Positions 2,841-58,240 are shown, numbered from the stretch's first letter. The stretch is 64,000 bases of DNA from an uncultured bacterium (GCA_964387845.1 CAYLXA010000003.1:96001-160000); one strand, 5' to 3'. Translations and numbers: made by a program. Notes: generated by a model not told the origin, from the sequence alone.

Positions 2841-3818
2841 TTAAGCCGGAAATTTGATCCAGCCCTTCTCTTTTGCTTGCTTAAGCATAGCGTCTGTTTC
2901 TTTAAAAATGGTCTTACTGTCTTCGGCTGTGAGTTGATGCACCCATTGATTGCGCCATCTGGCATCCGCCGTTGCTTTCATTAAACCGGCAGTAGATTGA
3001 AATGCATCTTCCAAAATTGATTTTGAGATGACATCAAAAAAGTGAGTGCGCACATCAAGAACTTCCAGCTTCGATTTCACAAAACTCAAACCGTTTGTAA
3101 GCAAATTTCCCTTTTCGTCTTTCTTTTCTTCCTCTACCGGCGCTTTGATCGGAATAATTCCCGTGTTCGGCAAAGTAAACATACCGCCGACATAAAGCGT
3201 TTTTCCGTCATCAAGGCTTTGAATATATTCAAAACCTTCCATTTCCTGCATGATATCGCGAGCGCCGGCTTTTCCGCCATCGAGCATCAGACTGGAACGG
3301 GTTAACAGATATTTGCCGTCCTTGATTGTTATCTCGCTGCGGATTTTATAATCGGCATCTTTTAATCCGGCAAGAAGCGGCGGCATTTGGCGCTTTCGGT
3401 TAATGATGAGGGTCGATTTTTCGGGTGTTAGGCGTTTTCGCTCGATTATCTTCGTTTCAAGAAGGCCGGGCGTAAATTTTGAAGTGTCCTGGTAAGCCGA
3501 GAGCGCTTGTTGAACCCGGAAAAAAGGCGCATCTACCCGTACAAACGTGAAAAATCCGATATAGCTGGTGATTTTCGAAATGTCTGTATCTTTTACCCAC
3601 TGTTTCGGATCCAGCCACACAACTCTGACTTCGCGGTCCGGCGTTTTGGATATTGGAAACGAGAAAATTTTATCCGGATTTTCGCCGGATACCAATTCAT
3701 GCGTGATTTGATCAACTGTTTTGACGAGCGGCGATGCAGGTTCGGTGAAAGAATTCAAAGAAATAAAAAAATTGAATATAACAAAAAAGGATGTGATTCG
3801 GATAAAACGGGACGTCAT
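2841..3818 (-). CDS. Hypothetical exported protein
   Basis: N-terminal hydrophobic signal-like segment (FFVIFNFFISLNSF); no recognisable catalytic motif. Confidence 0.4.
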   Translation of the reverse strand: MTSRFIRITSFFVIFNFFISLNSFTEPASPLVKTVDQITHELVSGENPDKIFSFPISKTPDREVRVVWLDPKQWVKDTDISKITSYIGFFTFVRVDAPFFRVQQALSAYQDTSKFTPGLLETKIIERKRLTPEKSTLIINRKRQMPPLLAGLKDADYKIRSEITIKDGKYLLTRSSLMLDGGKAGARDIMQEMEGFEYIQSLDDGKTLYVGGMFTLPNTGIIPIKAPVEEEKKDEKGNLLTNGLSFVKSKLEVLDVRTHFFDVISKSILEDAFQSTAGLMKATADARWRNQWVHQLTAEDSKTIFKETDAMLKQAKEKGWIKFPA

Positions 3819-4939
3819 GACAATGTGCCGGATTCGCTCTCGATCGATTCTCTTTGCGCGGTTTCGCCTTTTTTGTAGCGTTCGATTTTATCGATTTTCG
3901 AGCTTATTTTCTGATAACTTGTTTTCGCAATTTTCTCGTAAGCTGTTTTTAAATGATCGATTGATTCGCCGAATTCTTCGAACCGCTCTTTAAAACGGAC
4001 CAGGTCTTCATCTAATTTTTCGATCAGCGCCACGATTTCCTGAATTTTTTCTTCAAAATGAAAATAACGGAACGACTGATAAATCACTTTCAAAATCGCA
4101 ATGAGGGAAAACGGCGCTGCTAAAACGACTTTTTTGGATTCCGCAATTTCAAAAAGTCGGCGGCAGTGCGTGAAGATAAGCGCATAAACGCTTTCGCTCG
4201 GCACAAACAAAATGGCGTAATCAAGCGTGTTTTCATCCGGATTGATATAATCCCGGCCCGCGACTTCATCAATGCGCCGCTTCACATCCTGCTCAAAATC
4301 AGTTAGAAATCTCTTTTGTTCTGCCTGATCCTGAGAATCCTGCGCTTTCATTAAATTTGCAATAGGAAATTTGACATCGAGACTGACTTTGTGCTGATCG
4401 GGAAGAAAGATCGTAAAGTCCGGGCGGTTGGCGCTCGTTTCCATTTGCTTGTTCTTTTGATAATGAAGCCCTTCGATCAGCCCGGAAGCTTTCAAAATAT
4501 CATCCGCGATCCGCTCGCCCCACTGTCCGCGCAGATTGTTGGTGTGAAGCACCTGATTTAATTTAGTTGCCGAATTGGTAAGGTTTGATACGGCTTGTTT
4601 TTGTTCGTTCAGAAGCGTTGAAAGTTCGCTGAACTTTCCGACCCGGTCTTTCTCGGTGGCTTTGATTTCCTGTTGATAAGTTTTGACGAGTGATTCAACG
4701 TTTGAGATCAGGGACTTAAAGGATTGTTCCTTGTCATTTAATGTTTCGTGAATTCGCGTGGTTTTCTCTTCAAGCGATTTCCCCGCGAGCGTCAGGATTG
4801 ACTCGAGGTTGTCTTTGACCATCTTCGCACTTGCCTGCTCCAGTTTTTGAGCCATCATGCGCTCAAAGGACTTTTGCAGCCAAAAACCGAAAATAACCAG
4901 GAATAAAAGCCCGATTAACAGATAAATAAGGGTTGCCAT
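3815..4939 (-). CDS. rmuC: DNA recombination protein RmuC
   Basis: N-terminal TM helix, long coiled-coil, and a conserved RmuC C-terminal region (FLPDQHKVSLDVKFPIANL, DYAILFVPSESVYA). Confidence 0.7.
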   Translation of the reverse strand: MATLIYLLIGLLFLVIFGFWLQKSFERMMAQKLEQASAKMVKDNLESILTLAGKSLEEKTTRIHETLNDKEQSFKSLISNVESLVKTYQQEIKATEKDRVGKFSELSTLLNEQKQAVSNLTNSATKLNQVLHTNNLRGQWGERIADDILKASGLIEGLHYQKNKQMETSANRPDFTIFLPDQHKVSLDVKFPIANLMKAQDSQDQAEQKRFLTDFEQDVKRRIDEVAGRDYINPDENTLDYAILFVPSESVYALIFTHCRRLFEIAESKKVVLAAPFSLIAILKVIYQSFRYFHFEEKIQEIVALIEKLDEDLVRFKERFEEFGESIDHLKTAYEKIAKTSYQKISSKIDKIERYKKGETAQRESIESESGTLS

Positions 4940-4999
4940 AGCACAAAAGTTTCTAACTTTTGAGTTCGAATGTCAAGAGCACTATGATAAAATTCCGCC

Positions 5000-5833
5000 A
5001 TGAGAAGTTCCTCTTTCGACTCGGTTATTTTTGATATCGATAACGTTTTAATCGATACACGCGCCTCTTACACCGACTGCATCCGCGAAACCGTCCGGCG
5101 CTATCTGGGCAAACACCTTAAGTTAAAGAATCAAAAGGACTTACTGCTTTCACGCGCGGATGTGGAGCAATTTAAACTCTTGGGCGGATTTAACGACGAT
5201 TGGGACACCTGTTACGGATTATTACTTTTTCTTTCTAGTTCAAAAGTAAAAACTAAAAATTTGAAAGCTTTTTCAAAAAAAGTCGGGAAACCTTTATTTG
5301 TGAAAGGGATTGAACGAATTTGCGGGAAAAATTCAAAAATAAACATGAAAAAAGTTGCCGCGATTTTTCAAAAACTTTATTGGACAAAATATATCAAGCG
5401 CGAAAAATTAATTGTTCCAAAAAATGTAATCCGGGATTTGGCGGAGTCAGGCATCAAAATCGGGATCGCAACAGGCCGAAACCGGAAAGAAGCTTACTAT
5501 GCGCTTAGAAAAGCCGGGATTTCGAAATATATGTCCAAAGTGATGACTTTGAACGATTTGCCGTCCGCGAAATTCAAAAAGCCGCATCCCTATTTGCTTG
5601 AGAAAATTTCTGAAAAATTCGGAAAGGATCTTCGGTATCTTTACGTCGGTGATTTGCCGGATGATATTCAAATGGCGCGGAATTTAGATTCCCGAATTAA
5701 AATATCCACGATCGGATTTTCTTACTCGGCTGTTTCGGAAAAGGATGCGAGGCGCGCTCTTTTAAAATCCGGCGCCGTTTGCGTGATACGCTCCGCCAAA
5801 TCACTTTCCACCTTCCTCCGTCATAATTTGTGA
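5000..5833 (+). CDS. HAD-superfamily hydrolase
   Basis: DIDNVLIDT (DxDx[TV]) motif I, and VGDLPDDIQMA matching HAD motif IV. Confidence 0.65.
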   Translation: MRSSSFDSVIFDIDNVLIDTRASYTDCIRETVRRYLGKHLKLKNQKDLLLSRADVEQFKLLGGFNDDWDTCYGLLLFLSSSKVKTKNLKAFSKKVGKPLFVKGIERICGKNSKINMKKVAAIFQKLYWTKYIKREKLIVPKNVIRDLAESGIKIGIATGRNRKEAYYALRKAGISKYMSKVMTLNDLPSAKFKKPHPYLLEKISEKFGKDLRYLYVGDLPDDIQMARNLDSRIKISTIGFSYSAVSEKDARRALLKSGAVCVIRSAKSLSTFLRHNL

Positions 5834-5842
5834 CGGAAGATA

Positions 5843-5872
5843 CCGTCATTCTGCCTCCGGCCTTTCAGGCCG
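5843..5872. repeat. GC-rich palindromic element, copy 1 (CCTCCGGCCTTTCAGGCCGATAGGCCCGGAG)
   Basis: About 31 bp imperfect direct repeat of the element at 7601-7630. The two copies flank a lower-GC island. Confidence 0.45.
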
Positions 5873-6084
5873 ATAGGCCCGGAGAGAGCGAAGCGAAGAA
5901 TCTCAGCTCAATTTATTTCTCTCCGCTTCCCTGCGCGCGTTGATTTTTAGCCGAGTGGGCTAAACAAAAATCATCGTGCTCGGCCCACGTCAAAAATTTG
6001 AGCCATTCAAATTTTTGCCGTGATGGCGCTCCGAGAAACAAATTGATCTTCGATTCTTCGTCAGTCTGACACCTTGTTATAGTG

Positions 6085-6627
6085 TTAATCGGTGTTTTTC
6101 AACTGAACAAATTCTTTCAAAAAGTCGGCAAGTTCGGCGTAAAAATCGGAAAAAAGCCCCGAGTATAACATGATGATTCTAACGTCCATGCCATCGTGAT
6201 TACCGAAAGCGCCAATCGATGCCTTTTTGCTTATGCAATATAAAGGGTTATTTAATGTAGATTTATCATTAACTTCTTTTGACCTCTTGAGTGAGTCATT
6301 CCATACCTCCATGTATTCAATCATTCTTATGTGATGCACGGCTATCGCGGCTGGAAATTGTTCCTTGGCAAATCTCTGATTTCTTAACCTACTATTTAAA
6401 TTGGAGCGAAATGTCTTAATAACAGATTCAAACTGACTTGGGAAAATCTCTTTAATAGCTAAATAAATTCCATACACATACAGGTGCGATAACTCTTCAA
6501 AGAATCTTCTCTTATCTATTTCAAAATCAATTTTAATAGATTTCTGCTCTTTAATTCGGCTTAGTAATGCTTCTATTAGGAAGTCAACTAATTCTGGTTT
6601 TGAATATTTATCACTGTCATTGGACAT
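6085..6627 (-). CDS. Hypothetical protein (AT-rich island)
   Basis: 180 aa ORF, distinctly AT-rich relative to its neighbours. No recognisable motifs. Confidence 0.4.
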   Translation of the reverse strand: MSNDSDKYSKPELVDFLIEALLSRIKEQKSIKIDFEIDKRRFFEELSHLYVYGIYLAIKEIFPSQFESVIKTFRSNLNSRLRNQRFAKEQFPAAIAVHHIRMIEYMEVWNDSLKRSKEVNDKSTLNNPLYCISKKASIGAFGNHDGMDVRIIMLYSGLFSDFYAELADFLKEFVQLKNTD

Positions 6628-6751
6628 GATGATTAGCCATGATTTTACGCTTTGTTTACCGGATACCCTCCGGTTGGGAGAGATTAGCTCCTTAAAAATG
6701 ATGCATTTTATGCCTCAAATAAGGAAGTGTCTAGGGGAACGAAATTTGAAT

Positions 6752-7030
6752 TTAGAAGTTCTTAAGAAAGCGCTTCACGTCGTCGTGATTGCCGGCGAGG
6801 ACAAACTCGACCAAGTCGCCTGTCCATCTAAACAAAATGCGGGCTTTAATTCCCTTCCGGACTTCCCACAAATCTCCCGCGAGGCGCTTGAGGCCCAGGC
6901 CTTGGTAGATTTGTCTATCTTTAGAAAGTACATCGATCAATTGAGAAGCCGCATGCTTCACTTCGGATTTTTCAGATAGCGGCAACGACTTAATGGAACG
7001 TTCAAAGGATGGCTTGAATTCAAACCGCAT
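6752..7030 (-). CDS. Type II toxin, RelE/ParE superfamily
   Basis: 92 aa protein; FKPSFERSIKSL, LWEVRKGI and ARILFR...FVLAGNHDDVKRFLKN resemble RelE/ParE/HigB-type mRNA-interferase toxins. Confidence 0.65.
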   Translation of the reverse strand: MRFEFKPSFERSIKSLPLSEKSEVKHAASQLIDVLSKDRQIYQGLGLKRLAGDLWEVRKGIKARILFRWTGDLVEFVLAGNHDDVKRFLKNF

Positions 7031-7080
7031 GAAAATACTTTCTAGTGGTAACCCCGCGTCGCCAAAAAGCGGCTCATGGG

Positions 7081-7138
7081 GCGACTATCTCCCTAGATAA
7101 ATAGCAACTTGAGTCTTCATAGGTAGGAGATAGTCGTC
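7081..7138. promoter_or_regulatory. 12 bp inverted repeat (GCGACTATCTCC ... GGAGATAGTCGTC) between antitoxin and toxin genes
   Basis: 11/12 bp inverted repeat with a 33 nt spacer, ending right at the antitoxin stop codon. Candidate operator or RNA structure. Confidence 0.35.
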
Positions 7139-7408
7139 TCATAATCCGGCAAGGTGCTTTTTAGCAGCGACCTCGTCGGTGAAAGTTTTTCCTTTTTCAG
7201 ACGCCAGCTTCTCAATTTTTTTCCATTGTTTCGGGCTGTAAGGCAAACGGGCGGTCATTTCGCACGGCAAAAGAAGGATGCCTTCTTTGGTAACGCCGAA
7301 AGCGACAGCGGAGCCCGCTTCCAGATGAAGGAGCTTTCTCACACGATTTGGAATGGTCACTTGTCCTTTAGATGTCATTTTGGTTGTTTCAATAATGGTC
7401 ATGGCCAA
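7139..7408 (-). CDS. AbrB/MazE (SpoVT-AbrB) family antitoxin
   Basis: MTSKGQVTIPNRVRKLLHLEAGSAVAF is a swapped-hairpin AbrB/MazE DNA-binding domain. It sits upstream of the toxin on the same strand. The true start may be the internal MTSKGQ. Confidence 0.6.
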   Translation of the reverse strand: MAMTIIETTKMTSKGQVTIPNRVRKLLHLEAGSAVAFGVTKEGILLLPCEMTARLPYSPKQWKKIEKLASEKGKTFTDEVAAKKHLAGL

Positions 7409-7600
7409 TCTCCTTTTGTATGCATTCCTTACTTCCTTACAAAAGGATAGCAGACGTACTACCAGAAATCAAGATTCAAGATAGGTTTTATCTGTTCATG
7501 AGCCGGTTACTAACGTGGAAGGCTTGGGTGGAGATTTGTATGACGATTATGATATTGGATTATTATTTTATGTCAATATAAATTATCCCCCCTCACCCCC

Positions 7601-7630
7601 TCCGGGCCTAAGGCCCGATAGGGCCGGAGC
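7601..7630. repeat. GC-rich palindromic element, copy 2 (CCTCCGGGCCTAAGGCCCGATAGGGCCGGAG), followed by hairpin CCCTCTCCCAAAGGGAGAGGG
   Basis: Direct repeat of 5843-5872. Confidence 0.45.
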
Positions 7631-7914
7631 CTGCCCTCTCCCAAAGGGAGAGGGGAAAAGCTTTGAAGAAGCACCGAAGCGAATTGGATTCGCATATGAG
7701 AAATCATGTGCGGAAGCATTGGAAAGCCGATGGCCTGCAGCGATTTGTAGGGCAGGAACAGCGGAAGGTGTTCCAATGCCGGAGCGAATAGATTTCTTAC
7801 AATGAATCCACTGAGCGGAGGGCTTCTTCAAAGCTTTAAACGGAGATTGCTTCGACGACAAATAATGCGTCTTCCGCCAAAAAGCGCGGCGGACAGGCGC
7901 AATGACGGTAAATG

Positions 7915-8361
7915 TTAGTCCGCTAATTTGCCGTTTATTTTGACGCGCATCATCTGTCGCCCCCACCGGAGCGCGGCCTTGTGGCCGCCCATGGAATCGG
8001 GAATAAATAAATCAATGTGCCGGCCGCGGATTTTCCCGCCGCGGTCTTTGACCGTAAATTCCGTCCGGTTTTTTAGGATGCTATAAACTTTCCAGAATTC
8101 CCACGGCCACACGCGCATCAACTTGACTTCGGACCCGAACGGCACATTTTTGGAAGCTGCAATGCCGCCCCAGCTTACTTTTTCGCCGTTTGCAAATTTT
8201 CCGTCTCGAAATTCAGGCACATTAATGCAAATCGGGCAATTGCAATACGCTGTCACAATATAAAGATGTTTGCCCCAAAGTTCGTGATAAGAAACAGCGC
8301 CTACCAAAAAAATCAAAAGCCAAGTGATGATTTTGGCTTTCCACTTTTTAATAATGCCCAC
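7915..8361 (-). CDS. 3D (Asp-Asp-Asp) domain protein, MltA-like cell-wall associated
   Basis: N-terminal TM/signal segment; C-terminal DRGGKIRGRHIDLFIPD matches the 3D-domain aspartate signature. Confidence 0.5.
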   Translation of the reverse strand: MGIIKKWKAKIITWLLIFLVGAVSYHELWGKHLYIVTAYCNCPICINVPEFRDGKFANGEKVSWGGIAASKNVPFGSEVKLMRVWPWEFWKVYSILKNRTEFTVKDRGGKIRGRHIDLFIPDSMGGHKAALRWGRQMMRVKINGKLAD

Positions 8362-8369
8362 GCTTTGCC

Positions 8370-8573
8370 CTATCCGCCGCGTTCTTCAAGCCACGCCATT
8401 TGGATGGCTTCCAGGATCTTTTCGTTGGAGTTTTTGGGATCATCTGAAAAATCGGCAAGCTCGGTGATCCATTTGTGCAAATCGGTAAAACGAACGGTTA
8501 GAGGGTCAATCTCCGGAAATTTCTCTGCCAGCTGGATGCCGATCTCTTCCGTGTCGGTCCATTTAAGTTTCAT
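8370..8573 (-). CDS. iscX: Fe-S assembly protein IscX
   Basis: [12 protein letters not shown]...[10 protein letters not shown]...[14 protein letters not shown] closely resembles E. coli IscX (YfhJ). It is the last gene of the isc operon. Confidence 0.7.
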
Positions 8574-8938
8574 CAGTGCGACCCCGAAATTTGGTTGATT
8601 GTATATTTCGGAATTTCGACGATAATTTCACCGCCCTTAACGACCGACTGGCATGCAAGACGCGAAGACAGCGTGGCACCGGATGCTTTATCAACCAAAT
8701 CCGCTTCACGGTCTTCCATTTCGGTCAAATTCTCCATGCCTTTTTTGATAATGATGTGGCATGTGGTACAGGCACAATTGCCGCCGCAGGCGTGTTCTAA
8801 ATCGATGCCGTTTGCAAGCGCGATAGACAAAATGGAACCCGGCTCGCCATCGTGGCCTGTTACGGGGGTGTTGGAATCTACCTCGACGGTTTTATTGAGA
8901 GGAAGAAAAGTAACTTTTGCTTTAGCCATTTTGGTCAA
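8573..8938 (-). CDS. fdx: [2Fe-2S] ferredoxin Fdx of the ISC system
   Basis: [11 protein letters not shown] cysteine motif and an EIPKYTIN C-terminus like E. coli Fdx. Located in the isc operon. Confidence 0.8.
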
Positions 8939-10742
8939 TCCGTTTTCCGACGACCGACTTTTTCAATACGTCATTCATCACAATTTCGGCCAAATGTTCG
9001 GTAGTTTTATTTAAAATTTCGGTCGCGTCTTTGATTTTTTTCCGGTCATTGCCGGAAAGCTCTGTTTTTAAGACCTGAAGTGCATCTTCGATCTTTTTCT
9101 TTTCTTCTTTTGAAACTGCACTACCAGCCTGCACGAGTCCCTTTTCCGTCGCGCGGATAATCAAATCTGCTTCATTCTTAGCATCGATTAAAAGATGCGC
9201 GTCGAAATCTTCTTTGGCTTTCGAGTAAGATTCCTGAACGATATTCTGAATTTCCTGTTCTGTCAATCCATAGGTGGGTTTCACCTCGATCGACTGCTCC
9301 TTACCGTTTCGTTGGTCTTTTGCCTTCACCTGCAAAATTCCGTTTTCATCAATTAAAAACGTAACCTCAATGCGCGGCATACCGGCCTGCATCGGCTCAA
9401 TTCCCTTTAATTGAAACCGCGCAAGACTCCGGCAGTCCTTCGCCAGTTCGCGCTCGCCCTGAACAATGTGAATATCGACCGAAGTTTGGCCGTCTACGAA
9501 AGTTGTGAACACATCGTTGGCACGTGCCGGGATCGTTGAATTCCGCTCGATGATCCTTGCTACCGCACCGCCGTAAGTTTCGATTCCAAGACTGAGCGGG
9601 GTAACATCCAGCAGCAGCATGTCTTTCAGCTGCCCCGTTAAAATATGAGCTTGCACGGCAGCGCCCAAAGCCACAACTTCATCGGGATTCAAGTCGCAGT
9701 GCGGCTCTTTTTCGAATATTCCCTTTACGATTTCTCTGACGATCGGCATGCGCGTCGAGCCGCCGACTAAAATCACTTCATCAATGTCGCTTGCGGAAAG
9801 TTCGGCGTCTTTGAGCGCCTGCTTGCACGGCTTGACGGTCCGTTCCACAATCGGCCTGATGATGGTTTCGAATTCTTTGCGTGTGAGAAAATACTCAAAG
9901 CTCATTTCGGAATTTTTGATTTGAATCGTGGCTTTTTCTTTTATCGAAAGCTCTATTTTTGCCTTCTCGGCCGTTTCGACAATAAGTTGTGTTAACTCCG
10001 GGTTGCCGGCAGCTTTGCTTCCGATTTTTTCGATCAGCATTTGCGCAAGCTTCCAATCCACATCGTCACCGCCCAAATGCGTATCGCCTGCGGTGGCAAG
10101 GACTTCGAAAATTCCGTCATGCAGGTTTAAAATCGAAATATCAAACGTGCCACCGCCCAAATCGTAAACCGCGATTTTGCCGCGGTCTTTTTTATGAAGC
10201 CCGTAAGCAAGGCTCGCCGCGGTCGGTTCGTTAATGATCCGCATCACGTGAAACCCGGCAATTTTCCCCGCGTCTTTTGTGGCTTGCCGCTCTGAATCAT
10301 TAAAATAGGCCGGAACCGTAATGACGGCAGATTTAACGGGTGATTTGAAGAAGGTTTCTGCGCGGGTTTTCAAATTTTTAAGCACAAGCGCCGAAATTTC
10401 CGGAGGTGTTAAAAGCTGATCACCCAATTTGATTCGAATAATTTTTTCATCCGAAAGATCGACGGGATACGGAATGTATTCGGATTTCAAATCGACTTCG
10501 CGCGAGCCTTTTCCCATGAGACGTTTAACGCTCGAAATGGTTAAAGCCGGCTTCGAAACACGCTGATGTTTGGCTTCGTTACCAACCAAAATTTCGCCTT
10601 TCGCGCCGATCGAAACAACGGACGGCAGCAGGATGGTTTTCTTTGAATCCGGAATCGCTTTCGGTTTTCCGGATTCATCCACATAAGCTGCAACGCTAAA
10701 TGTTGTTCCTAAATCAATGCCGATGACTGGTTCCATAATCAA
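8922..10742 (-). CDS. hscA: Fe-S cluster assembly chaperone HscA (Hsp70 family)
   Basis: [11 protein letters not shown]-terminus and DLGGGTFD actin-like ATPase motifs of Hsp70. Located between hscB and fdx. Confidence 0.9.
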
Positions 10743-13329: not shown

Positions 13330-13851
13330 TTACCCCTTCAAAGATTTTTTGGCCGATTTCACTGCGGTTTTGCTGCGGCCGTTATTTTCAACATCCAATA
13401 AATTAAAAGTTGATAAATTCCATTGCTTTTGCAAGTCATCCTCACCTTCGGCGAGCGACGCGAGCGTTACGCTGCTGCAAAAATCATCGATCAATTGCTT
13501 CAGCTTCCGCCAAAACGGCCGGACGCTACAGCTTGAGAAATGCTGGCAAACAATCCGTTCGCGAAGCCTCGGCGAACAAAACACTTCAAATATGTCGCCT
13601 TCTACCGATTCAATAACTTGCTTCAATGTGATTTGTTCGGGTTCTTTTGCAAGCACAAACCCGCCGTAAATTCCCTTAACACTTTTGATAATGCCGCCCT
13701 TGCGGAGCTTCACGAAAATCTGTTCTACATAATCCTTGGGCAGATGTTCGGCATCGGACACTTCCGAAACCGAAATCGGGTTGCCGTTTGCATGATCGCA
13801 AAGGTACTTTAAACTGACTAATGCGTATTCGCTTTTGGTGGTTAGCTTCAT
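13330..13851 (-). CDS. iscR: Rrf2-family transcriptional regulator IscR
   Basis: [17 protein letters not shown] winged-helix N-terminus; three clustered Cys ([17 protein letters not shown]). It is the first gene of the isc operon. Start taken at the internal Met. Confidence 0.75.
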
Positions 13852-13981
13852 AGATTTATCCTTAAACCCGCAAAACCCACTAAAATTGTACAATATATGA
13901 CTGTTTTAATCAAGATTTATTAAAAAAGTCTCAAAATTTATCTTAAGTTGTTTAATTATAATAATTTATAACTATTACGAA

Positions 13982-14551
13982 TTATTCTAAAGCAGCTTCG
14001 ATTTGACGTTTTACAGAGAGAAAATCAGGATCCGAAATTTTCGCTGCCGGCTCGCGGACTTCTAAAAAACGGTCCAATTCTACCCATGATTTACAGCCGG
14101 CATACTGAGAAGTCATTGAAATAATGTGCGGGTACAAAAGCTCAAAAGTACGGACCAAAATCAGATAAATTCCCTTCTCTTTTCCATAATGAAAACGCTT
14201 TTCAATCTCCCGGTCAGACCAAATGTGAAACGGTGAAATGTGCGGAATTCGTTTTTCGTCCGAAACGCGGAATATTTTTTCAACTTTCACATAATACCGA
14301 AGCGCTGCCTGATCAGGCTCTCCTCGATTTTGGATTACCTGCTTCAAATCTTCATGAAATGCGGATTTCAAATCAGCCGGCTCCTGATGTTCATAAGTGG
14401 GAAACAGGAAAAACTCTTCGTGTTCTACGCGAAATTCTCTATTTTTTTCCTGAATGCCGCCCTTGCGCAAAATAATGCTTTGCTTGCCCTGTGCCAGCGC
14501 GTTGATCACAACGGCCCATTCTTTGAATGCGTTTTTGTTTTCGGCAAGCAT
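13982..14551 (-). CDS. Hypothetical protein (conserved DUF-like, about 189 aa)
   Basis: Clean ORF with no recognisable motif. Confidence 0.4.
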   Translation of the reverse strand: MLAENKNAFKEWAVVINALAQGKQSIILRKGGIQEKNREFRVEHEEFFLFPTYEHQEPADLKSAFHEDLKQVIQNRGEPDQAALRYYVKVEKIFRVSDEKRIPHISPFHIWSDREIEKRFHYGKEKGIYLILVRTFELLYPHIISMTSQYAGCKSWVELDRFLEVREPAAKISDPDFLSVKRQIEAALE

Positions 14552-29490: not shown

Positions 29491-30132
29491 TTATTCCGCA
29501 GAAACGCTGACGTTATCCAAATAAACCGAGCCGGCTTTTGGATTGCTGTTGATGTCGTCAAAAACAAGCACAAACTCTGTAAGCTGTTTCCAGTCACTGA
29601 TTTTTCTAAATTTTTCAAACGGAATCGAAAACTTCTGCCACTGATCCGTAATACCGTTCAAAATGTACGGCGAAGACCCCTTTGAATCTTTCACTTCCAC
29701 TTTTATCCTTTTCGTGAAACCTTTCTCAGCGTCACCTTTCAAATAAAAGTTTAGTGTGTTGTAGGATGTTGCATCCAGATTATTGAAACGCATCCAAAAT
29801 CCGTTGTAAGCCGGATTCGGAGAATCAACGTCATAGTCAAACCGAAGCGCGTATCCTGTCTTATCGCCCAAAGCATCGTCAGATTCAAAACTCATGCGGC
29901 AGCCTTGTGTTTCGTCATTGGGGTCCTTGTCCCATGAGCCAAAATCGCCGCCTAAATTGTTTGGCTTGTCCCCTGTATCAAAATCCGCCACCATCAACTC
30001 ATCGCTTCCTGAAGCAGCTTCTGCTCCGGATCCCGTTGAATCGCCATATTCCACTGCAAAAACAGACGCTGGGCCTGCAATGCAAAACAGAAAAATAAAT
30101 GCCGTAACCATCAACAAAGCTAACTTTTTCAT
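29491..30132 (-). CDS. Secreted carbohydrate-binding-module-like protein
   Basis: Signal peptide; beta-sandwich-like sequence ending VYLDNVSV (CBM-like). Adjacent to GH94. Confidence 0.4.
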   Translation of the reverse strand: MKKLALLMVTAFIFLFCIAGPASVFAVEYGDSTGSGAEAASGSDELMVADFDTGDKPNNLGGDFGSWDKDPNDETQGCRMSFESDDALGDKTGYALRFDYDVDSPNPAYNGFWMRFNNLDATSYNTLNFYLKGDAEKGFTKRIKVEVKDSKGSSPYILNGITDQWQKFSIPFEKFRKISDWKQLTEFVLVFDDINSNPKAGSVYLDNVSVSAE

Positions 30133-30512
30133 ATTGCCTCTCCTTTACGTTATTTGAATGACGCCAGCAAATTTGAAAATGCGACTGACTTCTTCGTTAT
30201 CAAGGTAACGCTTCTATTTAAATTGATGTGTATTAATTGATTAATTGAATGCAGGAATTTTTTGAAATGATTTAATTGGGATAAGGCAACGGAAGCACTC
30301 GAAACTTTTTCCACGGGACTCCAGGACTCACTTGGTTTTTTAGAACACTTGAACAATTTACCGCCCCCAGGTTAAAGCTAAGGAAAATATGCGGTTTAAA
30401 ACCACGTACAATCGGGACCAAAAAAAAGTCTTTAAAAAGCACTAAAAATTATATGCCTCTCAAAATTTGAAGTCAATAGAAAATTGATTAAAAAACTTTC
30501 TTAAAGCTTTTT

Positions 30513-30560
30513 GGGCAAAAAACAACCCAAGGCAAATATTTAAAATTCACCTTGGGTTGT
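30513..30560 (-). terminator. Intrinsic terminator downstream of GH94 gene
   Basis: CAACCCAAGG...CCTTGGGTTG hairpin with an A-run on the plus strand, i.e. a U-tail on the minus strand. Confidence 0.5.
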
Positions 30561-30569
30561 TATAACTGC

Positions 30570-33029
30570 TTAACCTAAAACAACTTCGACAACATGAGGT
30601 CCTTTTCCTTTTTGAGGAGGAATCACATTGCCGTCTATTTTTTTGCCATTTACCTTAAGTACCCGGACTCCCGAAGACACGCCATCAGGGTTCTTGACCT
30701 TAATATCGTAAGTTGCCCCTCTGAAAAGACGGCGCATTCTGAAACCATCCCATTTTCTTGGGATAACCGGGTTAATTTTAAGGCCTTTCACGCTCGGTTG
30801 AACGCCTAAAACATAATTGAGTGCGACCCGGTAATTCCAGCCGGCGGCGCCGGTATACCAAGTCCAAGCAGCACGGCCCGGATGTGGGGATTCGGGGCCG
30901 TCTACGTTGCCGGGAAGTACATAAGGCTCGCCGTAGTAGCTATCGGCATCTTTGCCGCGAATTGCCGGCGAAAAGCTTTGATAGCATTTATGGGCCTTAT
31001 CACCTTCGCCCATAATGGCAAGTGCTTGAATCGCCCAATTGCCTGCATGTGTATACAAACCGCCGTTTTCACGAACCGCCGGCGCGTAGCGCGTAATATA
31101 GCCGATGGTCGGATCTGTTTTTGTGTAAGCCGGCGTTAACAGCAATGGGCCGTACGGCTTAAATAATTTGTGCTCCGCGGACTTCATGCAGATCTTTGCG
31201 CGTTCAGGCGTTGCAACGTCATTGATAACTGCCCAAGTCTGCGTATTCAGGAAGATCTGCCCTTCACCGCTCGTTTTGCTTCCAAGCGGACGGCCGTCGT
31301 CGCGTGTCGCGCCAATGTACCATTCGCCGTCCCAACCGTGCTTGTTGATGGCTTCTTTAAGCGCGGCGGCACGTTTTGCATAATACTTGGTACGCTTCGA
31401 GTCTTTCTTGTTCGGGCAAACCGTATCGGAGAAGCGCATTAAAATTCCGTAAAGGAATTGGCCCAACCAAACTGATTCACCTTTCCATTTAAGACCAACG
31501 TGGCTCAAGCCGTCGTTCCAATCGCCTTCGCCGATCAGCGGCAATCCGCGCTTCGACCAACGAGAGAAAACTTTGTCAATCGCACGGTTGCAATGATCAT
31601 ACAAAGTGCCTTTTGTGACTTTTTTGGTTTTGGGATCCGGCAAAAATTCGACAACTTGATTCAAAATCGAAAAATCGGCCGTTTCATCAATATAGTGGAC
31701 CGTTAAAAACGCAAGCCACAACAAATCGTCCGTCATGTGCGTAATAGCGCCCATGCTGGTTCCCGGATGCCACCAGTGATACACGGTTCCGTCCGGAAAT
31801 TGCTGTGAAGCGTGAAGCAAGATCTGCTTTTTGGTCAGTTCCGGCTTGATCGGTAAGAAAACGTGGCTGTCTTGCAGCTGATCTCTGAATCCGATTCCGC
31901 CTGAGGATTGATAGTAACCGCATTTTGCCCACAACCGGCCCGAAATGGCTTGGTACTTCAGCCAAATATTGGTGAAGAAGTTCATCGCATCGTCCGGCGT
32001 TTCGATAAAAGTAGGGGTTATAAAATCTTCCCATACCTGCTTAGCGCGATCTAATGCTTTCCAAACAGCCCCTTCGGTTTTGAAGTTGCGGATTAACTTT
32101 TCGGCTTCGGCGCGCGTATCCGCTTTTCCGAGTACAAAAATCACGTCTTTTGTCTCGCCCGGTTTTAAATCAACATTGACTTGGAGCGACGCGGTTGCAT
32201 CATAATGCTTTCCGTGTGTGCCTTTGAGCTGCCCTTCTACGACAGACTGAGGAGCGCGAATTCCGCCGTAACGGCCGAAAAACGTTTCTTTGTCGCCGTC
32301 AAATCCCGCAGCCGGCATATTGGTAACCGCATGAAAAGATTGAAGCGGTTTTTCGGAAAGCCCGGAGGAAATAAACCCCGGGACAAGTGCGCGGCGTTTC
32401 CAGCCGTAAATAGCGCCTAGTTTTTCATCGAAATCCGTTTCGATAAACGTTTTTTGGAATTCGCGGTGTGTATCGGCTGCGTTTCCGAGGCACCACTCAA
32501 AATAAGTAAACAAGCTCAGCTTGCGCGGCGAATCTGATTCGTTTGTGATCGAAACATTCCAAACTTCGACAGGATCTTTGGCATCCACAAACACTGTTTT
32601 TTCGATGCGGATTCCTTTGTAGAGACTCTTCAGAACCGAATAACCTTGCCCGTGGCGGACTTCGTAAAAATCATACTCGGTGCAGCAGGGTTTCCAGGTT
32701 GCAGACCAAAATTCTTCCGACTCATTGTCGCGAACATAGATGTATTTGCCCCACTCGTCCTTGATTAAGTCCTGTTCCCAACGTGTGATGCGCGACAAAT
32801 TGGAATTTCCGTACCATGAAAATCCGGAACCGGTCTGTGATTCAATCATCCCGTAATCGGGATTTGCAATTACGTTGACCCACGGACGCGGCGTATCAGG
32901 GCGCGTGATCACATATTCACGGCCGTCCTTTGTGAAGTAGCCGTATTTATTCTCGAATTTTTTTTCTTCTTTTGTTGCACCTGACTTCTGCTTCATTTTT
33001 CTCTCCCCCGCTAATGCTTGAGCGCTCAT
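30570..33029 (-). CDS. GH94 glycoside phosphorylase (cellobiose/cellodextrin/chitobiose phosphorylase family)
   Basis: N-terminal YGYFTKDGREYVITRPDTPRPWVNV resembles the cellobiose phosphorylase N-terminus. About 800 aa, as in GH94. Confidence 0.7.
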   Translation of the reverse strand: MSAQALAGERKMKQKSGATKEEKKFENKYGYFTKDGREYVITRPDTPRPWVNVIANPDYGMIESQTGSGFSWYGNSNLSRITRWEQDLIKDEWGKYIYVRDNESEEFWSATWKPCCTEYDFYEVRHGQGYSVLKSLYKGIRIEKTVFVDAKDPVEVWNVSITNESDSPRKLSLFTYFEWCLGNAADTHREFQKTFIETDFDEKLGAIYGWKRRALVPGFISSGLSEKPLQSFHAVTNMPAAGFDGDKETFFGRYGGIRAPQSVVEGQLKGTHGKHYDATASLQVNVDLKPGETKDVIFVLGKADTRAEAEKLIRNFKTEGAVWKALDRAKQVWEDFITPTFIETPDDAMNFFTNIWLKYQAISGRLWAKCGYYQSSGGIGFRDQLQDSHVFLPIKPELTKKQILLHASQQFPDGTVYHWWHPGTSMGAITHMTDDLLWLAFLTVHYIDETADFSILNQVVEFLPDPKTKKVTKGTLYDHCNRAIDKVFSRWSKRGLPLIGEGDWNDGLSHVGLKWKGESVWLGQFLYGILMRFSDTVCPNKKDSKRTKYYAKRAAALKEAINKHGWDGEWYIGATRDDGRPLGSKTSGEGQIFLNTQTWAVINDVATPERAKICMKSAEHKLFKPYGPLLLTPAYTKTDPTIGYITRYAPAVRENGGLYTHAGNWAIQALAIMGEGDKAHKCYQSFSPAIRGKDADSYYGEPYVLPGNVDGPESPHPGRAAWTWYTGAAGWNYRVALNYVLGVQPSVKGLKINPVIPRKWDGFRMRRLFRGATYDIKVKNPDGVSSGVRVLKVNGKKIDGNVIPPQKGKGPHVVEVVLG

Positions 33030-37990: not shown

Positions 37991-38060
37991 TATAATGCTT
38001 TCTCGCCTTTATTCCTTTTTACCCATCATGCGGCCATAGCTTCCGCCAAACTGCGCGGCG

Positions 38061-38105
38061 GACCCGCCATGCTTTGTGGCGGGCAATTGAATATATTAAG
38101 GCTCT
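38061..38105. repeat. Paired-hairpin REP-like element, copy B
   Basis: CCGCCAAACTGCGCGGCGG-ACC-CGCCATGCTTTGTGGCGGG. Confidence 0.45.
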
Positions 38106-41467: not shown

Positions 41468-41554
41468 CGGAGAGGGTAGGATTCGAACCCACGAGACCCG
41501 TAAGGGCCTAACGGTTTTCAAGACCGCCGCATTCGACCGCTCTGCCACCTCTCC
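41468..41554 (-). tRNA. tRNA-Ser (anticodon TGA)
   Basis: Reverse complement GGAGAGGTGGCAGAGCGGTCGAATGCGGCGGTCTTGAAAACCG...GGGTTCGAATCC...CTCTCC-G; anticodon loop CTTGAAA. Confidence 0.85.
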
Positions 41555-41635
41555 AAGTATCAGTTGTAAGCTGTAAGTGCTAAGAATTCTTTTTTTGACT
41601 TACCACTTACAACTTATCGCTTAACACTAGAAGAA

Positions 41636-41728: not shown

Positions 41729-41810
41729 ACATATCAGTCGTAAGTTATAAGTGTTAAGTGATAAGAAACACCTATTTCTTGGCTTACCACTTACAACTTA
41801 TCACTTACCA

Positions 41811-43067
41811 CTAAGCTAAGTACTGATCTAAAACTTTTGGCAGTTTGATGCTGCCATCTGCTTGCTGACAATTCTCGAGTAAACATAGAAACGTTCTCGC
41901 AAGCGCAACGCCGGAACCATTCAGCGTATGGACAAACTTGGGTTTTCCGCCGTCTGCCGGCTTATATTTCACATTGATCCGCCGCGCCTGAAAATCAAAA
42001 AACGTGCTGCAGCTGGATACTTCAAACCATCTTCCGGTTCCCGGCGCCCATGCTTCGATATCATAACATTTTGCCGCTGCAAAACTCATGTCGCCGCTTG
42101 AAAGCAGCAAAACTCTGTAAGGAATCTCGAGAAGCTGCAAAATTTCCTCGGCATCTTTCACCAATTTTTCAAGTTCATTGAGCGACTCTTCCGGCTTTAC
42201 AAATTTTACCAGCTCAACTTTATCAAATTGATGAACACGCGAAAGCCCTTTTGTATCTTTCCCGTAAGAGCCGGCTTCCCTTCTAAAACATGGTGTGTAG
42301 GCCACATATTTCACGGGTAAATCTTTTTCGCCAAGCACATCATCCCGGTGCATATTGGTCACCGGAACTTCCGCCGTCGGGATCAAAAACAAATCATCAT
42401 CTTTGAGCCGGTACATGTCTTCTTCAAATTTTGGAAGCTGGCCTGTGCCGGTCATGCTTGCACGGTTGACCAAAAGCGGCGGCCAAACCTGTTTGTAACC
42501 ATGCTTTTTGGCATGAAGATCGACCATTAAATTAATGAGCGCCCGCTCGAGCTTGGCGCCATCACCTTTAAAAATAGGAAAAGCACTGCCTGAAATTTTG
42601 GCGCCTGTTTCCATGGATAGCCAGCCAAGCGCATTGGCCAGAGCAACGTGGTCCTTGGTTTTAAAGGAGAATTCGGTCTTTTTACCCCATTCCCGCACAA
42701 CCTGATTAGCTGAAGCGTCTTTCCCGATAGGCACGCTATCATCTATAATATTTGGGATATTAAGTATTAATTTATCAATATGTAATTCTATATGCCCCAC
42801 TTTTGAGTCAATTTCAGCTATTTTTTGGGATAATGTCTTTCCTTCTTCTATTTGCTTAGAAATGTCCTTTTTGTCGTGTTTAAGACGGCTTACTTGATCG
42901 TTTAATTCGTTCCGTTTGGCCTTAAAAACATCGGTTTCCTGGATCAATTTACGCTTTTCGGCATCTAAAGCGACGATTTCATCAATGGTTTTTGGGTCGA
43001 CACGCTTTGCGGACAGTTTTTTCTTGTACAAATCTGGGTTTTCGCGAATGAGTTTAAGGTCAAGCAT
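41811..43067 (-). CDS. serS: Seryl-tRNA synthetase
   Basis: MLDLKLIREN N-terminal coiled-coil arm and class II aaRS motifs. Confidence 0.9.
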   Translation of the reverse strand: MLDLKLIRENPDLYKKKLSAKRVDPKTIDEIVALDAEKRKLIQETDVFKAKRNELNDQVSRLKHDKKDISKQIEEGKTLSQKIAEIDSKVGHIELHIDKLILNIPNIIDDSVPIGKDASANQVVREWGKKTEFSFKTKDHVALANALGWLSMETGAKISGSAFPIFKGDGAKLERALINLMVDLHAKKHGYKQVWPPLLVNRASMTGTGQLPKFEEDMYRLKDDDLFLIPTAEVPVTNMHRDDVLGEKDLPVKYVAYTPCFRREAGSYGKDTKGLSRVHQFDKVELVKFVKPEESLNELEKLVKDAEEILQLLEIPYRVLLLSSGDMSFAAAKCYDIEAWAPGTGRWFEVSSCSTFFDFQARRINVKYKPADGGKPKFVHTLNGSGVALARTFLCLLENCQQADGSIKLPKVLDQYLA

Positions 43068-53859: not shown

Positions 53860-55674
53860 ATGTCAGAAAAAATCTACGATTGTATTGTAATCGGCGCCGG
53901 TCATGCCGGCACGGAAGCTGCACTTGCCATTGCCCGCACAAACCACAATGTTCTCTTCCTCACGATGAACATTGATTCAATTTGTCAAATGTCGTGCAAC
54001 CCGGCGATCGGCGGGCTTGCCAAAGGCCATATGGTCCGCGAAATTGATGCGCTTGGCGGCCAAATGGCTCTCACGACGGATCAAACCGGCATTCAATTCC
54101 GCATGCTCAACAAATCCAAAGGCCCTGCCGTGTGGGCGCCGCGCGCTCAGTCGGATAAAAAACAATATCAAATGCTGATGAAAAAAATTGTCGAGGCCGA
54201 GAAAAATATTGATCTCAAACAAGATCAAGCCGTTGAGTTGCTTGTTAAAAACGGAAAAGCGACTGGCGTTAGGACGCAGCTCGGAATTTCTTATTACGCA
54301 CAAACCATCGTGATTTCAAGCGGCACGTTCATGCGCGGCTTAATTCATGTAGGCGATGTGAACTTCCCCGGCGGCCGCGGAGGCGATCCGCCGTCTTTGG
54401 GGCTGTCGGATTCGCTGAAAGCGCACGGAATTGAGCTTATGAGATTTAAAACCGGAACGCCGCCCCGTTTGCGGAAAGGCACAATCGATTTTTCAGTCTG
54501 TGAAGAGCAGCCCGGCGATGAAAACCCATCGCCGTTTTCATTTCAAACCGAGAAAATTTCACAAAAACAGCTTTCCTGTTATCTCACACACACAAATGAG
54601 AAAACGCACACTATTATCAAACAAAATCTCTACCGCTCCCCTCTCTACGGCGGCATTATCCAAGGAACCGGCCCGCGCTACTGCCCTTCGATCGAAGATA
54701 AAGTTGTGAAATTCGGTGATAAAGAGCGCCACCAAATTTATTTAGAGCCGGAGGGTTGGGACACGGAAGAAACTTATGTAAACGGAATTTCAACGAGTCT
54801 TCCGCAAGATGTTCAAATCGAGCTCGTGCGCTCAATCCGCGGACTTGAAAATGCCGAGCTGATGAGGTTTGGTTATGCAATCGAATATGATTGCGCGCAG
54901 CCAACACAGCTTAAACATTCACTCGAAACCAAAAAAATCGAGAACCTATTTTTTGCGGGCCAAATCAATTGCACTTCCGGCTATGAAGAGGCTGCCGCGC
55001 AAGGTTTGATTGCCGGTTTGAACGTTATCCGGAAGCTTCGCAACCAACCCCCCTTCATTTTGAGCCGGTCCGAGGCCTATATCGGCGTTTTAATTGATGA
55101 CCTTGTGACGCGCGGGACAACGGAGCCGTACCGGATGTTTACTTCGAGAGCCGAGTTTCGCCTTTTGCTTCGGCAAGACAACGCAGATGAGCGGCTTATG
55201 AAATATGGCCGTGAGTTTGGTTTGATACCGGAAGCCGTATTTGAAAAGACGGAAAATACGATCCGAAAGGTCCAAGAAACAATCAACCAACTACACAAAA
55301 CTCCAATGGGTAGCATATCGGCAAGACAATTTCTAAGACGTCCAGAAGTTACATTTAACTCATTTAAATATAATAAGTTAGACTTAGAAGAACTTGATAA
55401 AGATATCGTCCAACGCATTGAAAATGAAGTGAAATATGAAGGCTATGTGAAGCGGCAATTAATTGATGTGGAAAAATTCAGCAAATTGGAGCGGCGAAAA
55501 ATTCCGGAAGGAATCAATTATCAAACAATTCATAATTTGAGCCGAGAAGCTCGGGAAAAGCTTTCCAAAGTAAAACCGGTATCAATCGGCCAAGCTTCCC
55601 GGATTCCTGGGATTTCTCCTGCGGATCTTTCTGTATTGTCTATTGTGGTTGAGAAGATTTTACGAAATTCGTGA
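53860..55674 (+). CDS. mnmG: tRNA uridine 5-carboxymethylaminomethyl modification enzyme MnmG (GidA)
   Basis: YDCIVIGAGHAGTEAA FAD-binding N-terminus; about 600 aa. Confidence 0.9.
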   Translation: MSEKIYDCIVIGAGHAGTEAALAIARTNHNVLFLTMNIDSICQMSCNPAIGGLAKGHMVREIDALGGQMALTTDQTGIQFRMLNKSKGPAVWAPRAQSDKKQYQMLMKKIVEAEKNIDLKQDQAVELLVKNGKATGVRTQLGISYYAQTIVISSGTFMRGLIHVGDVNFPGGRGGDPPSLGLSDSLKAHGIELMRFKTGTPPRLRKGTIDFSVCEEQPGDENPSPFSFQTEKISQKQLSCYLTHTNEKTHTIIKQNLYRSPLYGGIIQGTGPRYCPSIEDKVVKFGDKERHQIYLEPEGWDTEETYVNGISTSLPQDVQIELVRSIRGLENAELMRFGYAIEYDCAQPTQLKHSLETKKIENLFFAGQINCTSGYEEAAAQGLIAGLNVIRKLRNQPPFILSRSEAYIGVLIDDLVTRGTTEPYRMFTSRAEFRLLLRQDNADERLMKYGREFGLIPEAVFEKTENTIRKVQETINQLHKTPMGSISARQFLRRPEVTFNSFKYNKLDLEELDKDIVQRIENEVKYEGYVKRQLIDVEKFSKLERRKIPEGINYQTIHNLSREAREKLSKVKPVSIGQASRIPGISPADLSVLSIVVEKILRNS

Positions 55675-55676
55675 TT

Positions 55677-55692
55677 TGTTTCACGTGAAACA
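55677..55692. promoter_or_regulatory. parS site (TGTTTCACGTGAAACA)
   Basis: Perfect match to the ParB/Spo0J parS palindrome, 226 bp upstream of parA. Confidence 0.85.
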
Positions 55693-55822
55693 CAAATTAG
55701 TATTAATTCGTAAGTTGTTATATATAAATTATTTATTTAAATTAAATAGATTGATTGACTAAATATTAAAGATTAGATATAAAGAACGAAATTGTTGTAG
55801 TCGAAACAAAATCTATGAAGAA

Positions 55823-55838
55823 TGTTTCACGTGGAACA
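55823..55838. promoter_or_regulatory. parS site, one mismatch (TGTTTCACGTGGAACA)
   Basis: 15/16 match to the parS consensus, 80 bp upstream of parA. Confidence 0.7.
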
Positions 55839-55917
55839 ATCGGTCTAATGTTTTTTAAAATGCCTCTCAATTTATCAGTGCCTTTCGAAATTAAAAGAAA
55901 TTAACCCGGAGATCACA

Positions 55918-57893: not shown

Positions 57894-57906
57894 GCGATAG
57901 AAAATT

Positions 57907-58231: not shown

Positions 58232-58240
58232 ATTATTTTT

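Follow-up and report, generated by a model that had tools for sequence, protein, structure and literature searches.

A small double-hairpin repeat at the borders of a variable toxin-antitoxin locus in an uncultured bacterium

A stretch of 64,000 nucleotides (nt) from an uncultured bacterium (GCA_964387845.1 CAYLXA010000003.1:96001-160000), the whole of which is referred to here as the window, contains between positions 5834 and 7914 a patch in which a gene for a protein of 180 amino acids (aa) and a toxin-antitoxin (TA) gene pair are bracketed by two GC-rich 31-nt repeats, and the question arises whether these repeats are the traces of a single insertion or elements in their own right. The initial annotation had described the patch as an island between near-identical direct repeats, and had proposed either a cassette flanked by attachment (att) sites or target-site duplications, or a cassette lying between copies of a repetitive extragenic palindromic (REP)-like element. 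The two 31-mers are independently derived copies of one small hairpin-forming mobile repeat, not the scars of one insertion, and the second of the proposals is the one that comes close to the findings and is supported. The patch as a whole is probably a recombination-prone variable site, at which the P-II gene of the relatives gave way to a mobile TA operon and a rare gene and several families of hairpins accumulated, the 31-mers being independent copies of a miniature element. The outcome for the locus itself is the removal of a false lead: it is not a cassette between att sites, and nothing points to a defence gene.

The repeat pair does exist, but about 11 nt away from the coordinates first given (5843-5872 and 7601-7630), the copies being CCTCCGGCCTTTCAGGCCGATAGGCCCGGAG at 5854-5884 and CCTCCGGGCCTAAGGCCCGATAGGGCCGGAG at 7599-7629. 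A degenerate pattern for both copies finds two sites in the window and none in 100 shuffles (0/100), and a covariance model run on it with the filters off returns the same two copies and none further. Their description as near-identical was overstated, with an ungapped identity of 24/31, and the direct orientation is meaningless because the repeat unit is a palindrome: over 34 nt the copies agree at 24/34 positions as direct and at 25/34 as inverted repeats. The cGAAGCGAA stretch believed to follow both copies (CGAAGCGAA) begins 5 nt past the left one (5889-5897) and 46 nt past the right one (7675-7683), and is not over-represented, with four copies in the window versus 1.9 expected; by its frequency and these unequal distances it is therefore not a shared extension of the repeats. 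The differences between the copies (7/31) include a coordinated three-position stem swap, which separates two subfamilies seen across many genomes. The left copy has stems of the A-type, hairpin 1 having a compensatory T-A pair and the terminus a G>A change, and folds as single-stranded DNA (ssDNA) at -10 kcal/mol (z=-3.0); the right copy has stems of the B-type, and therefore neither is a fresh duplicate of the other. By the rule for the flanking bases given below, the right copy is also inverted relative to the left one.

The wider family was sought in one genome per species of 185,579 species with the pattern CTCCGGSCN{5,9}CCGATAGGSCCGGAG, which returned 22 loci against approximately 0.3 expected, the latter being our own estimate from the pattern length and library size and not the output of a tool; 21 of the loci are convincing and unrelated. 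The match in a Thermoplasmata metagenome-assembled genome (MAG; L024, the compared loci being numbered with the prefix L) was discarded as most likely a chance one, with a different spacing, no three-arm structure and a position in a GC-rich coding region. The 21 loci share features that the pattern did not demand, namely a preceding C, a following G and the free positions that complete the stems. The unit is a 32-nt GC-rich double hairpin of the form CCTCCGG-X-loop-X'-loop-X-CCGGAGG, as in CCTCC-GGCCC-TAC-GGGCC-GATA-GGCCC-GGAGG with a G on either side, and together with one duplicated flanking base it makes a net gain of 33 nt. The base before the unit equals the base after it (G...G or C...C) in 21/22 copies. 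The middle arm is able to pair with either outer arm, and the three arms change their central base in concert, between CG and GC (18 versus 4 sequences), which gives the two subtypes; columns 15-23 and 23-32 of the unit covary accordingly (CG/GC), and the ssDNA folds of the element range from -10 to -13 kcal/mol (z from -2 to -3), with the stems kept by covariation. The 22 loci are spread over about 17 MAGs with up to three copies per locus, the 64-kb window having two, and relaxed patterns find extra copies with other loops in L016 and L032. The carriers are labelled as Omnitrophota, Patescibacteria, Saccharibacteria, 'Planctomycetia' and 'Gammaproteobacteria', and the pattern has no match in 2.9 million IMG/VR viral contigs. 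No Rfam family is found at the locus, either at the gathering score over the window or at E<=1 over 5700-8000.

The habits of the element are best seen in the places where it has landed, which among the scan loci are intergenic DNA, fragments of tRNA genes and protein genes, the latter being entered in frame: Acs, PurD, a UvrD/PcrA-like helicase, GcvPB, alanine racemase (Alr), DnaX, and YfiH-like and MiaB-like proteins. The 11 residues encoded by the element (PPAPRADRPGG or PPALRADRPGG) occupy an alignment gap against the solved structures of Acs and PurD, which identifies them as an insertion; of its six reading frames, the unit leaves four open. Its position in L032 and L019 is the anticodon loop of tRNA-Trp fragments that adjoin an intact tRNA-Trp, and in L022 and L027 the D-arm of a duplicated 5' piece of a tRNA, directly before a tRNA with a group I intron. 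Wherever the uninterrupted sequence is at hand, including the anticodon loop of tRNA-Trp and the tRNA D-arm, the gain amounts to exactly 33 nt. Taken together, the element is dispersed, constrained in its structure and insertional, and behaves like a miniature insertion element.

The state of the site in relatives bears on the extent of the patch. In L035 and L037 (about 78% nucleotide identity) and in the more distant L041, the order is the isc operon, the 3D-domain gene, a P-II gene encoding 105 aa, the HAD gene and rmuC, and in L043 the 3D and HAD genes are adjacent with nothing between them. No copy of the element lies between the 3D and HAD genes in any of the four, and tblastn of the window finds no remnant of P-II. 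On this comparison of gene order, with P-II at the site of the relatives, no repeat there and no remnant here, 5834-7914 (2,081 bp) is a lineage-specific replacement that stands in place of the relatives' P-II gene. The island has thereby been confirmed as specific to the lineage, with P-II (L035/L037, L041) or nothing (L043) between the same flanking genes, but the single repeat expected at an empty site has not appeared, no copy being left there (the closest relative is only about 78% identical in nucleotides). Beyond the right copy, a further 285 nt, up to 7914, are also non-syntenic. The DNA of the island has no match in the plasmid or phage collections, and its open reading frames (ORFs) are those of the antitoxin, the toxin and the 180-aa protein only, none of which matches a recombinase or integrase.

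The short-read assembly of the same strain (SRR15237813) breaks at 5910-5936, at 7619 within the right copy and at 7768, with 5910-7619 forming a 1,710-bp contig of its own (Logan contigs L001, L003 and L038), and a second sample, SRR15237816 (L002), reads through 5673-6732, across the left copy. The breaks hint that other loci or strains in SRR15237813 share words of about 30 nt with the border repeats.

The 31-mers are not the only hairpins of the patch (Table 1). At the left border, the palindrome is nested in a frame CCGTCATT...GAAGAATCTC, which has an inverted partner at 7895-7910, and the two border frames look like the NTS of Neisseria, CGTCATTCCC...GGGAATCYRG (PMC11893778), with no match to the SRM search pattern. 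The repeat pair at 5894-6060 encloses, in addition, a 16-bp inner hairpin (5986-6022). A second palindrome family, YCCGCC-N-GGCGGR (N of 3-11), has six copies in the window versus 0.23 expected from shuffles, and the copy at 7873-7893 lies in the right border of the island. No other copy of 5885-6084 or 7630-7914 occurs in the sequences compared, save the known palindrome at 38040. The patch is probably a mosaic of independent pieces, namely the TA operon, a separately promoted AT-rich gene and GC-rich hairpin nests at both borders.

Among known repeats, the element stands near two groups. The REPs and the Rickettsia palindromic elements are small GC-rich imperfect palindromes, often nested or clustered, and the REPs are mostly intergenic, downstream of genes, and sometimes in coding regions, including those of replication and repair genes (Di Nocera et al. 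2013, PMC3733652). The unit is likewise small, GC-rich, palindromic and dispersed, lying mostly between genes but also inside coding regions, and it falls among the 20-40-nt imperfect palindromes able to form a stem-loop. However, it begins with CCTC, at best a variant of the CGTC tag, and carries no GTAG tag, and a RAYT gene was not seen. Under the strict pattern, copies per genome look few; MAGs with labels of different phyla share almost the same sequence, and each insertion adds exactly 33 nt. No Y1 transposase or RAYT was found among the ORFs listed for 3500-10500, the other parts of the window not having been scanned for one. The CGTC-tagged REPs have no known transposase (PMC3733652). 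An integron attC site was considered and rejected, as such sites measure 55-141 bp with R''/L''/L'/R' boxes and a GTTRRRY core, and the unit has 32 nt and no GTT core.

The other group consists of the hairpin repeats that accompany the Ssn nucleases, which are single-domain GIY-YIG enzymes that cut ssDNA beside the hairpin repeats flanking their genes; such repeats (NTS/dRS3 in Neisseria) cluster around variable genes (Chenal et al. 2025, PMC11893778). The likeness consists in short (20-50 nt) hairpin repeats adjoining single-domain GIY-YIG genes of about 80-95 aa and lying around variable genes, the borders of the island having NTS-like CGTCATT...GAAT/GCAATCTC frames. The difference is that the element is a three-arm double hairpin, and not a single stem-loop, and is known here from sequence alone. 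The SRM consensus HGTCWYN(0-2)YYVSBRHN(0-5)WNVSBRGN(0-2)RNCYNB has no match in the window, where shuffles average 0.13. With these features taken together, the repeat is a REP/SRM-like hairpin element with striking habits.

A small hidden Markov model (HMM) built from the ORFs adjacent to the element detects four GIY-YIG ORFs in the 22 loci, all at most about 60 nt from the element. In L014, L022, L027 and L032 the element lies within about 60 nt upstream of an ORF of 78-85 aa that contains PF01541 only, which places a hairpin repeat directly beside a single-domain GIY-YIG gene, as in the Ssn pairs. The window has its own such ORF (57907-58191, 94 aa, HMM E=3.6e-18), and all five are PF01541-only proteins of 78-94 aa. 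The layout around the window ORF (57818-58232) begins with a 5' fragment of tRNA-Ser (57822-57850), which ends inside the anticodon and shows 96% complementarity with a part of tRNA-Ser(tga) (41521-41546), and continues with two GC palindromes of the YCCGCC family (57850-57885), AAAACCG and the GIY-YIG ORF, the last of these reaching into an intact tRNA-Ser(cga) (58144-58232). A 5' piece of a tRNA, the 32-nt palindrome, a GIY-YIG ORF and an intact tRNA recur in this order in other MAGs (L032, 7000-7937 on the minus strand; L019, 850-1319; L022; L027; L014); two tandem copies of the layout follow rpmG at the tRNA-Trp locus of L032, the group I intron (RF00028, 54-77 bits) is in the downstream tRNA of L022 and of L027, and in L014 a tRNA-Pro is downstream. 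The recurrent layout looks like a tRNA-targeting GIY-YIG cassette. This architecture of insertion into tRNA genes is not mentioned in PMC11893778, where the word 'tRNA' occurs 0 times.

Elsewhere in the window (38028-38084), a duplicate of the initial 12 nt of tRNA-Arg (GCGGCCATAGCT) lies upstream of the gene itself (38145), at a distance of about 115 nt, and is followed by two palindromes, TCCGCCAAACTGCGCGGCGGA and CCCGCCATGCTTTGTGGCGGG, with no nuclease gene there; the segment may be what remains of such an insertion.

The variable genes of Neisseria also offer a comparison on the scale of the whole patch. Minimal mobile elements of Neisseria are variable sets of genes between conserved flanking genes, often bordered by dRS3. 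The patch is alike in its conserved flanks, its cargo that differs between lineages (P-II versus TA and the 180-aa gene) and the hairpins at its borders, and it differs in that exchange by transformation has no evidence here and that one cargo state with repeats was observed.

How the pieces would act together in a recombination-prone site can be worded conditionally. The element would be recognised as an ssDNA hairpin by a small Ssn-like nuclease with a single GIY-YIG domain, a suggestion based on the four GIY-YIG ORFs that adjoin the element, the window ORF preceded by YCCGCC palindromes and the published work on Ssn; the element would then spread by nuclease-initiated repair or by transposition, and the hairpins would pile up at, and may promote, sites of gene swapping, so that the repeats would mark a hot spot rather than result from the insertion of the island. 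Several points weigh against the explanation of the patch. No pair of filled and empty sites at the level of strains was found for any copy; both copies seen in the 64 kb lie in this 2-kb patch, where a functional link to the patch is possible; the element misses the published SRM consensus and has no clean GTAG or CGTC tag; the GIY-YIG adjacency concerns only 4/22 loci, and the nuclease gene of the window is flanked by a different palindrome family. Furthermore, the search pattern prescribed the GATA loop as well as the outer CTCCGG/CCGGAG and therefore under-samples the diversity and copy number, and the spread across phyla reflects MAG labels and short contigs, for which mis-binning is possible. 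A bolder extension, which we regard as tentative and would not favour as a whole, is that the 32-nt double hairpin is the smallest unit of an undescribed mobile system. The GIY-YIG cassette would home into tRNA genes at anticodon loops or D-arms, bringing a replacement for the 5' part of the tRNA and leaving the broken tRNA piece capped by the palindrome; the palindrome would also spread alone, its exact gain of 33 nt letting it survive in frame in essential genes, and would have crossed between Omnitrophota, Patescibacteria and other uncultured lineages; and piles of hairpins would create hot spots where such genes as the TA pair replace the residents.

Other explanations give the two copies a more direct part in the history or function of the patch. 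They could serve as the ends of a small cassette that moves or recombines, between which the TA and 180-aa genes were captured, moved or can be deleted, on the model of the Neisseria minimal mobile elements with their dRS3/NTS borders, as would suit the presence of only two copies in 64 kb, 1.7 kb apart around non-syntenic genes, the breaks of the same-strain short-read graphs at 7619 and 5910-5936 with the 1,710-bp contig between them, and the reported clustering of NTS repeats around variable genes (PMC11893778). An identity of 24/31 is, however, poor for homologous recombination, the copies are of different subtypes and, by the flank rule, of opposite orientations, non-syntenic DNA continues for 285 nt past the right copy, elsewhere the element is missing both at the loci of the TA homologs and at that of the nearest homolog of the 180-aa protein, and the second sample assembles straight across the left copy, which makes this an unlikely account. 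We consider it somewhat less probable still that the hairpins are kept for a task in RNA or DNA, such as termination of transcripts, protection of mRNA 3' ends or insulation of the TA promoter from read-through. The left copy does lie between the convergent 3' ends of the HAD and 180-aa genes, the right copy, together with a 9-bp perfect hairpin, separates the TA promoter from the 3' end of the 3D gene, the stems are maintained by compensatory changes, and REPs are reported mostly downstream of genes (PMC3733652); yet no run of T follows either copy and the terminator scan flagged neither, no Rfam family matches, and the element occurs in frame in essential genes and in tRNA fragments, where termination would be harmful.

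The reading of the repeats as att sites or target-site duplications of a site-specifically integrated 1.7-kb element draws on the fact that the pair brackets genes absent from the relatives, and has been rejected as very improbable. The seven mismatches that leave an identity of 24/31 include the compensatory swaps that define the subtypes, the element is present at 21 unrelated loci in other genomes, the empty site of the relatives has no copy, the island has no integrase or other recombinase, the boundary of the indel lies off the right copy, with the 285 nt of non-syntenic DNA further on, and the TA homologs elsewhere have no element. The recombination-prone variable site is the probable explanation of the patch. 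What is of interest is the repeat itself, a very small palindromic insertion, of exactly 11 codons, in housekeeping genes and tRNA fragments, which recurs in ultra-small uncultured bacteria beside Ssn-like GIY-YIG genes. If the link to the nuclease is true, the partnership of Ssn and hairpins would extend to genomes of the candidate phyla radiation (CPR) and of the Omnitrophota type, and a candidate mobilising enzyme would be at hand for the CGTC-type or untagged REPs, which lacked a dedicated transposase. For annotation, a warning follows that the 33-nt units would give rise to false ORFs, to breaks in assemblies and to extra peptides within conserved proteins.

Table 1. Features of the patch at 5834-7914, its flanking genes and the related palindromes of the window
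Feature	Position	Strand	Basis or remark
HAD-family hydrolase gene, conserved left flank	5000-5833	+	PF00702 E=9.6e-21; syntenic in L035, L037, L041
CGTC-tagged frame CCGTCATTCTG ... GAAGAATCTCAG, NTS/SRM-like, left palindrome nested inside	5843-5909	+	Read from sequence
Left copy of the 32-nt double-hairpin palindrome with flanking G...G	5853-5886		Covariance model, 54.6 bits
28-nt inverted repeat pair, 86% complementary, about 110 nt enclosed	5894-6060		Downstream of the 180-aa ORF
AT-rich 180-aa gene, rare family	6085-6627	-	GC 34.4%; 18-member family; AF2 model
Promoter-like site TAGACA-17-TAAAAT upstream of the 180-aa ORF	6705-6733	-	Consensus match only
RelE-like toxin gene, 92 aa	6752-7030	-	Homolog family; PHROG 1213
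Insertion between antitoxin and toxin, 112 nt	7025-7136	-	Alignment with L004, L010
AbrB/MazE-type antitoxin gene, 87 aa	7139-7402	-	PF04014 E=2.8e-7; TIGR01439 E=1.5e-10
Direct repeat GTAAGGAAGTAAGGAA, probable operator	7425-7440	-	Upstream of the antitoxin in all TA loci examined
Promoter-like site TTGACA-16-TATCAT for the TA operon	7549-7576	-	11/12 consensus matches
Right copy of the palindromic element, B-type stems, C...C flanks	7598-7631		Covariance model, 47.2 bits
Perfect hairpin CCCTCTCCC-AAA-GGGAGAGGG, 9 bp, adjoining the right copy	7634-7654		1 match versus 0.01 expected
Perfect 16-nt inverted repeat pair enclosing 149 nt	7657-7837		No other copy in the sequences compared
Inverted CGTC-tagged frame CCGTCATTGCG ... 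GAAGCAATCTCC	7842-7908	-	Palindrome TCCGCCAAAAAGCGCGGCGGA nested inside, 7873-7893
3D-domain protein gene, conserved right flank	7915-8361	-	PF06725; synteny
YCCGCC-N(3-11)-GGCGGR copies	7873, 23802, 38042, 38063, 57850, 57871		Pattern versus shuffles

Within the TA operon, the AbrB/MazE type of the antitoxin was recognised correctly, by the two profiles given in the table. The RelE/ParE type of the toxin holds in part, being supported as RelE-like by PHROG 1213 'RelE-like toxin', which matches 13/18 sampled members of the toxin family over their full length (best E=5.5e-5) and the window toxin itself at E=0.009, but not by any match in Pfam (E<=10) or, by sequence or by profile, in PDB. TIGR02385 gives a weak match in 3/18 members (E about 0.02), and hhalign of the toxin versus E. 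coli RelE and YafQ gave no match with a profile that was too shallow (Neff 1.6). The 92-aa ORF has 578 homologs at E<=0.01, with 73-90% identity among the 120 listed, and is therefore a real, conserved gene despite the lack of a Pfam or PDB match; several of the listed homologs are from MAGs named Omnitrophica, and JGI calls some of them RelE or YafQ. Going by these homologs, the TA family is frequent and strongly conserved in MAGs of the Omnitrophota type, and its members in other genomes occupy quite different neighbourhoods, without the 32-nt element. For the lineage of the window, the names of the TA homologs are the sole pointer to Omnitrophota; the best named matches of HscA are Rokubacteria, at about 56%.

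At the homologous loci the antitoxin precedes the toxin and its 87-aa gene overlaps that of the toxin by 4 bp. In the window, the 112-nt insertion sits between the ancestral toxin start ATGAGA and TTTGAA, exactly at toxin codon 3, contains a 23-nt inverted repeat (7070-7092 and 7126-7148) and ends with ATGCGG, recreating the Met-Arg start of the toxin; it removes the 4-bp overlap and uncouples the toxin from the antitoxin, both ORFs being left intact. Because of this insertion, the two genes lie 108 nt apart and do not show the translational coupling of type II TA systems. No second copy of the insertion occurs in any sequence compared. The likeness to type II systems is in the order of the genes, the small proteins, the direct-repeat operator upstream and the 4-bp overlap in the homologs, and the differences are the split by an insertion that supplies a new start codon for the toxin and a toxin too divergent for sequence searches of Pfam and PDB. 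The upstream repeat GTAAGGAAGTAAGGAA, of 17-19 nt and 100% identical in L004-L012, is a probable operator by its position and conservation. Its split aside, the TA pair shows nothing unusual.

The 180-aa ORF is, as had been thought, a real gene of no known family. A word-indexed search of 5.8 G proteins matched the protein to itself alone, and an exhaustive HMMER search of 1.84 G representatives found 18 relatives of similar length, with the conserved motif Y..WN......DDS.LNNPLY.ISK.AS. The AF2 model from the single sequence was poor (pLDDT 50), and that with the family alignment is a six-helix bundle (pLDDT 90.8, pTM 0.87), for which Foldseek versus PDB and BFVD (viral) returned nothing at E<=0.001, the sole fold match being a Cbp3-like helical bundle. 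The protein has no PADLOC, Pfam, NCBIfam or PHROG match and none in the phage collections, and its 18 family members have no meaningful Pfam match. The closest homolog (L039) has unrelated unknown genes as neighbours, and neither the TA pair nor the element is there; two further homologs are on contigs too short for the neighbourhood to be judged. The suggested role in defence or abortive infection has accordingly found no support, with the profiles silent, a promoter-like site of the gene's own, the closest homolog not beside a TA pair and a fold that is only Cbp3-like. The sharp drop in GC content between the repeats (41.4% for the stretch between them) was rightly noticed for this ORF, which at 34.4% is about 3 standard deviations below the window mean of 45.5%, but does not apply to the toxin (47.7%) and antitoxin (46.6%), which are typical of the window. 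Other low-GC stretches of the window (<=36% in 543-bp windows) lie at about 13800-14100, 30050-30700 and 55200-56250.

Some further observations concern relatives of the TA pair and the tRNA genes of the window. In L010/L011, a different short direct repeat, TACGTGTCCCCGGA, brackets the homologous TA pair at about 4540 and about 5350, and it may be common for modules of this TA family to lie among local repeats. In L045, a distant TA locus without the 32-nt element, a Y1 transposase gene (2914-3501; PF01797, Y1_Tnp, of the IS200/IS605 or RAYT-like kind) lies directly upstream of the copy of the TA family, and L046 has in common with L045 the TA genes and a region of about 150 bp upstream of them, the left neighbour being different. 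A 39-nt direct repeat, TTTTTTGACTTACCACTTACAACTTATCGCTTAACACTA, 90% identical between 41591-41629 and 41775-41813, adjoins each of two adjacent tRNA-Ser genes of the window and is possibly a duplicated promoter region.

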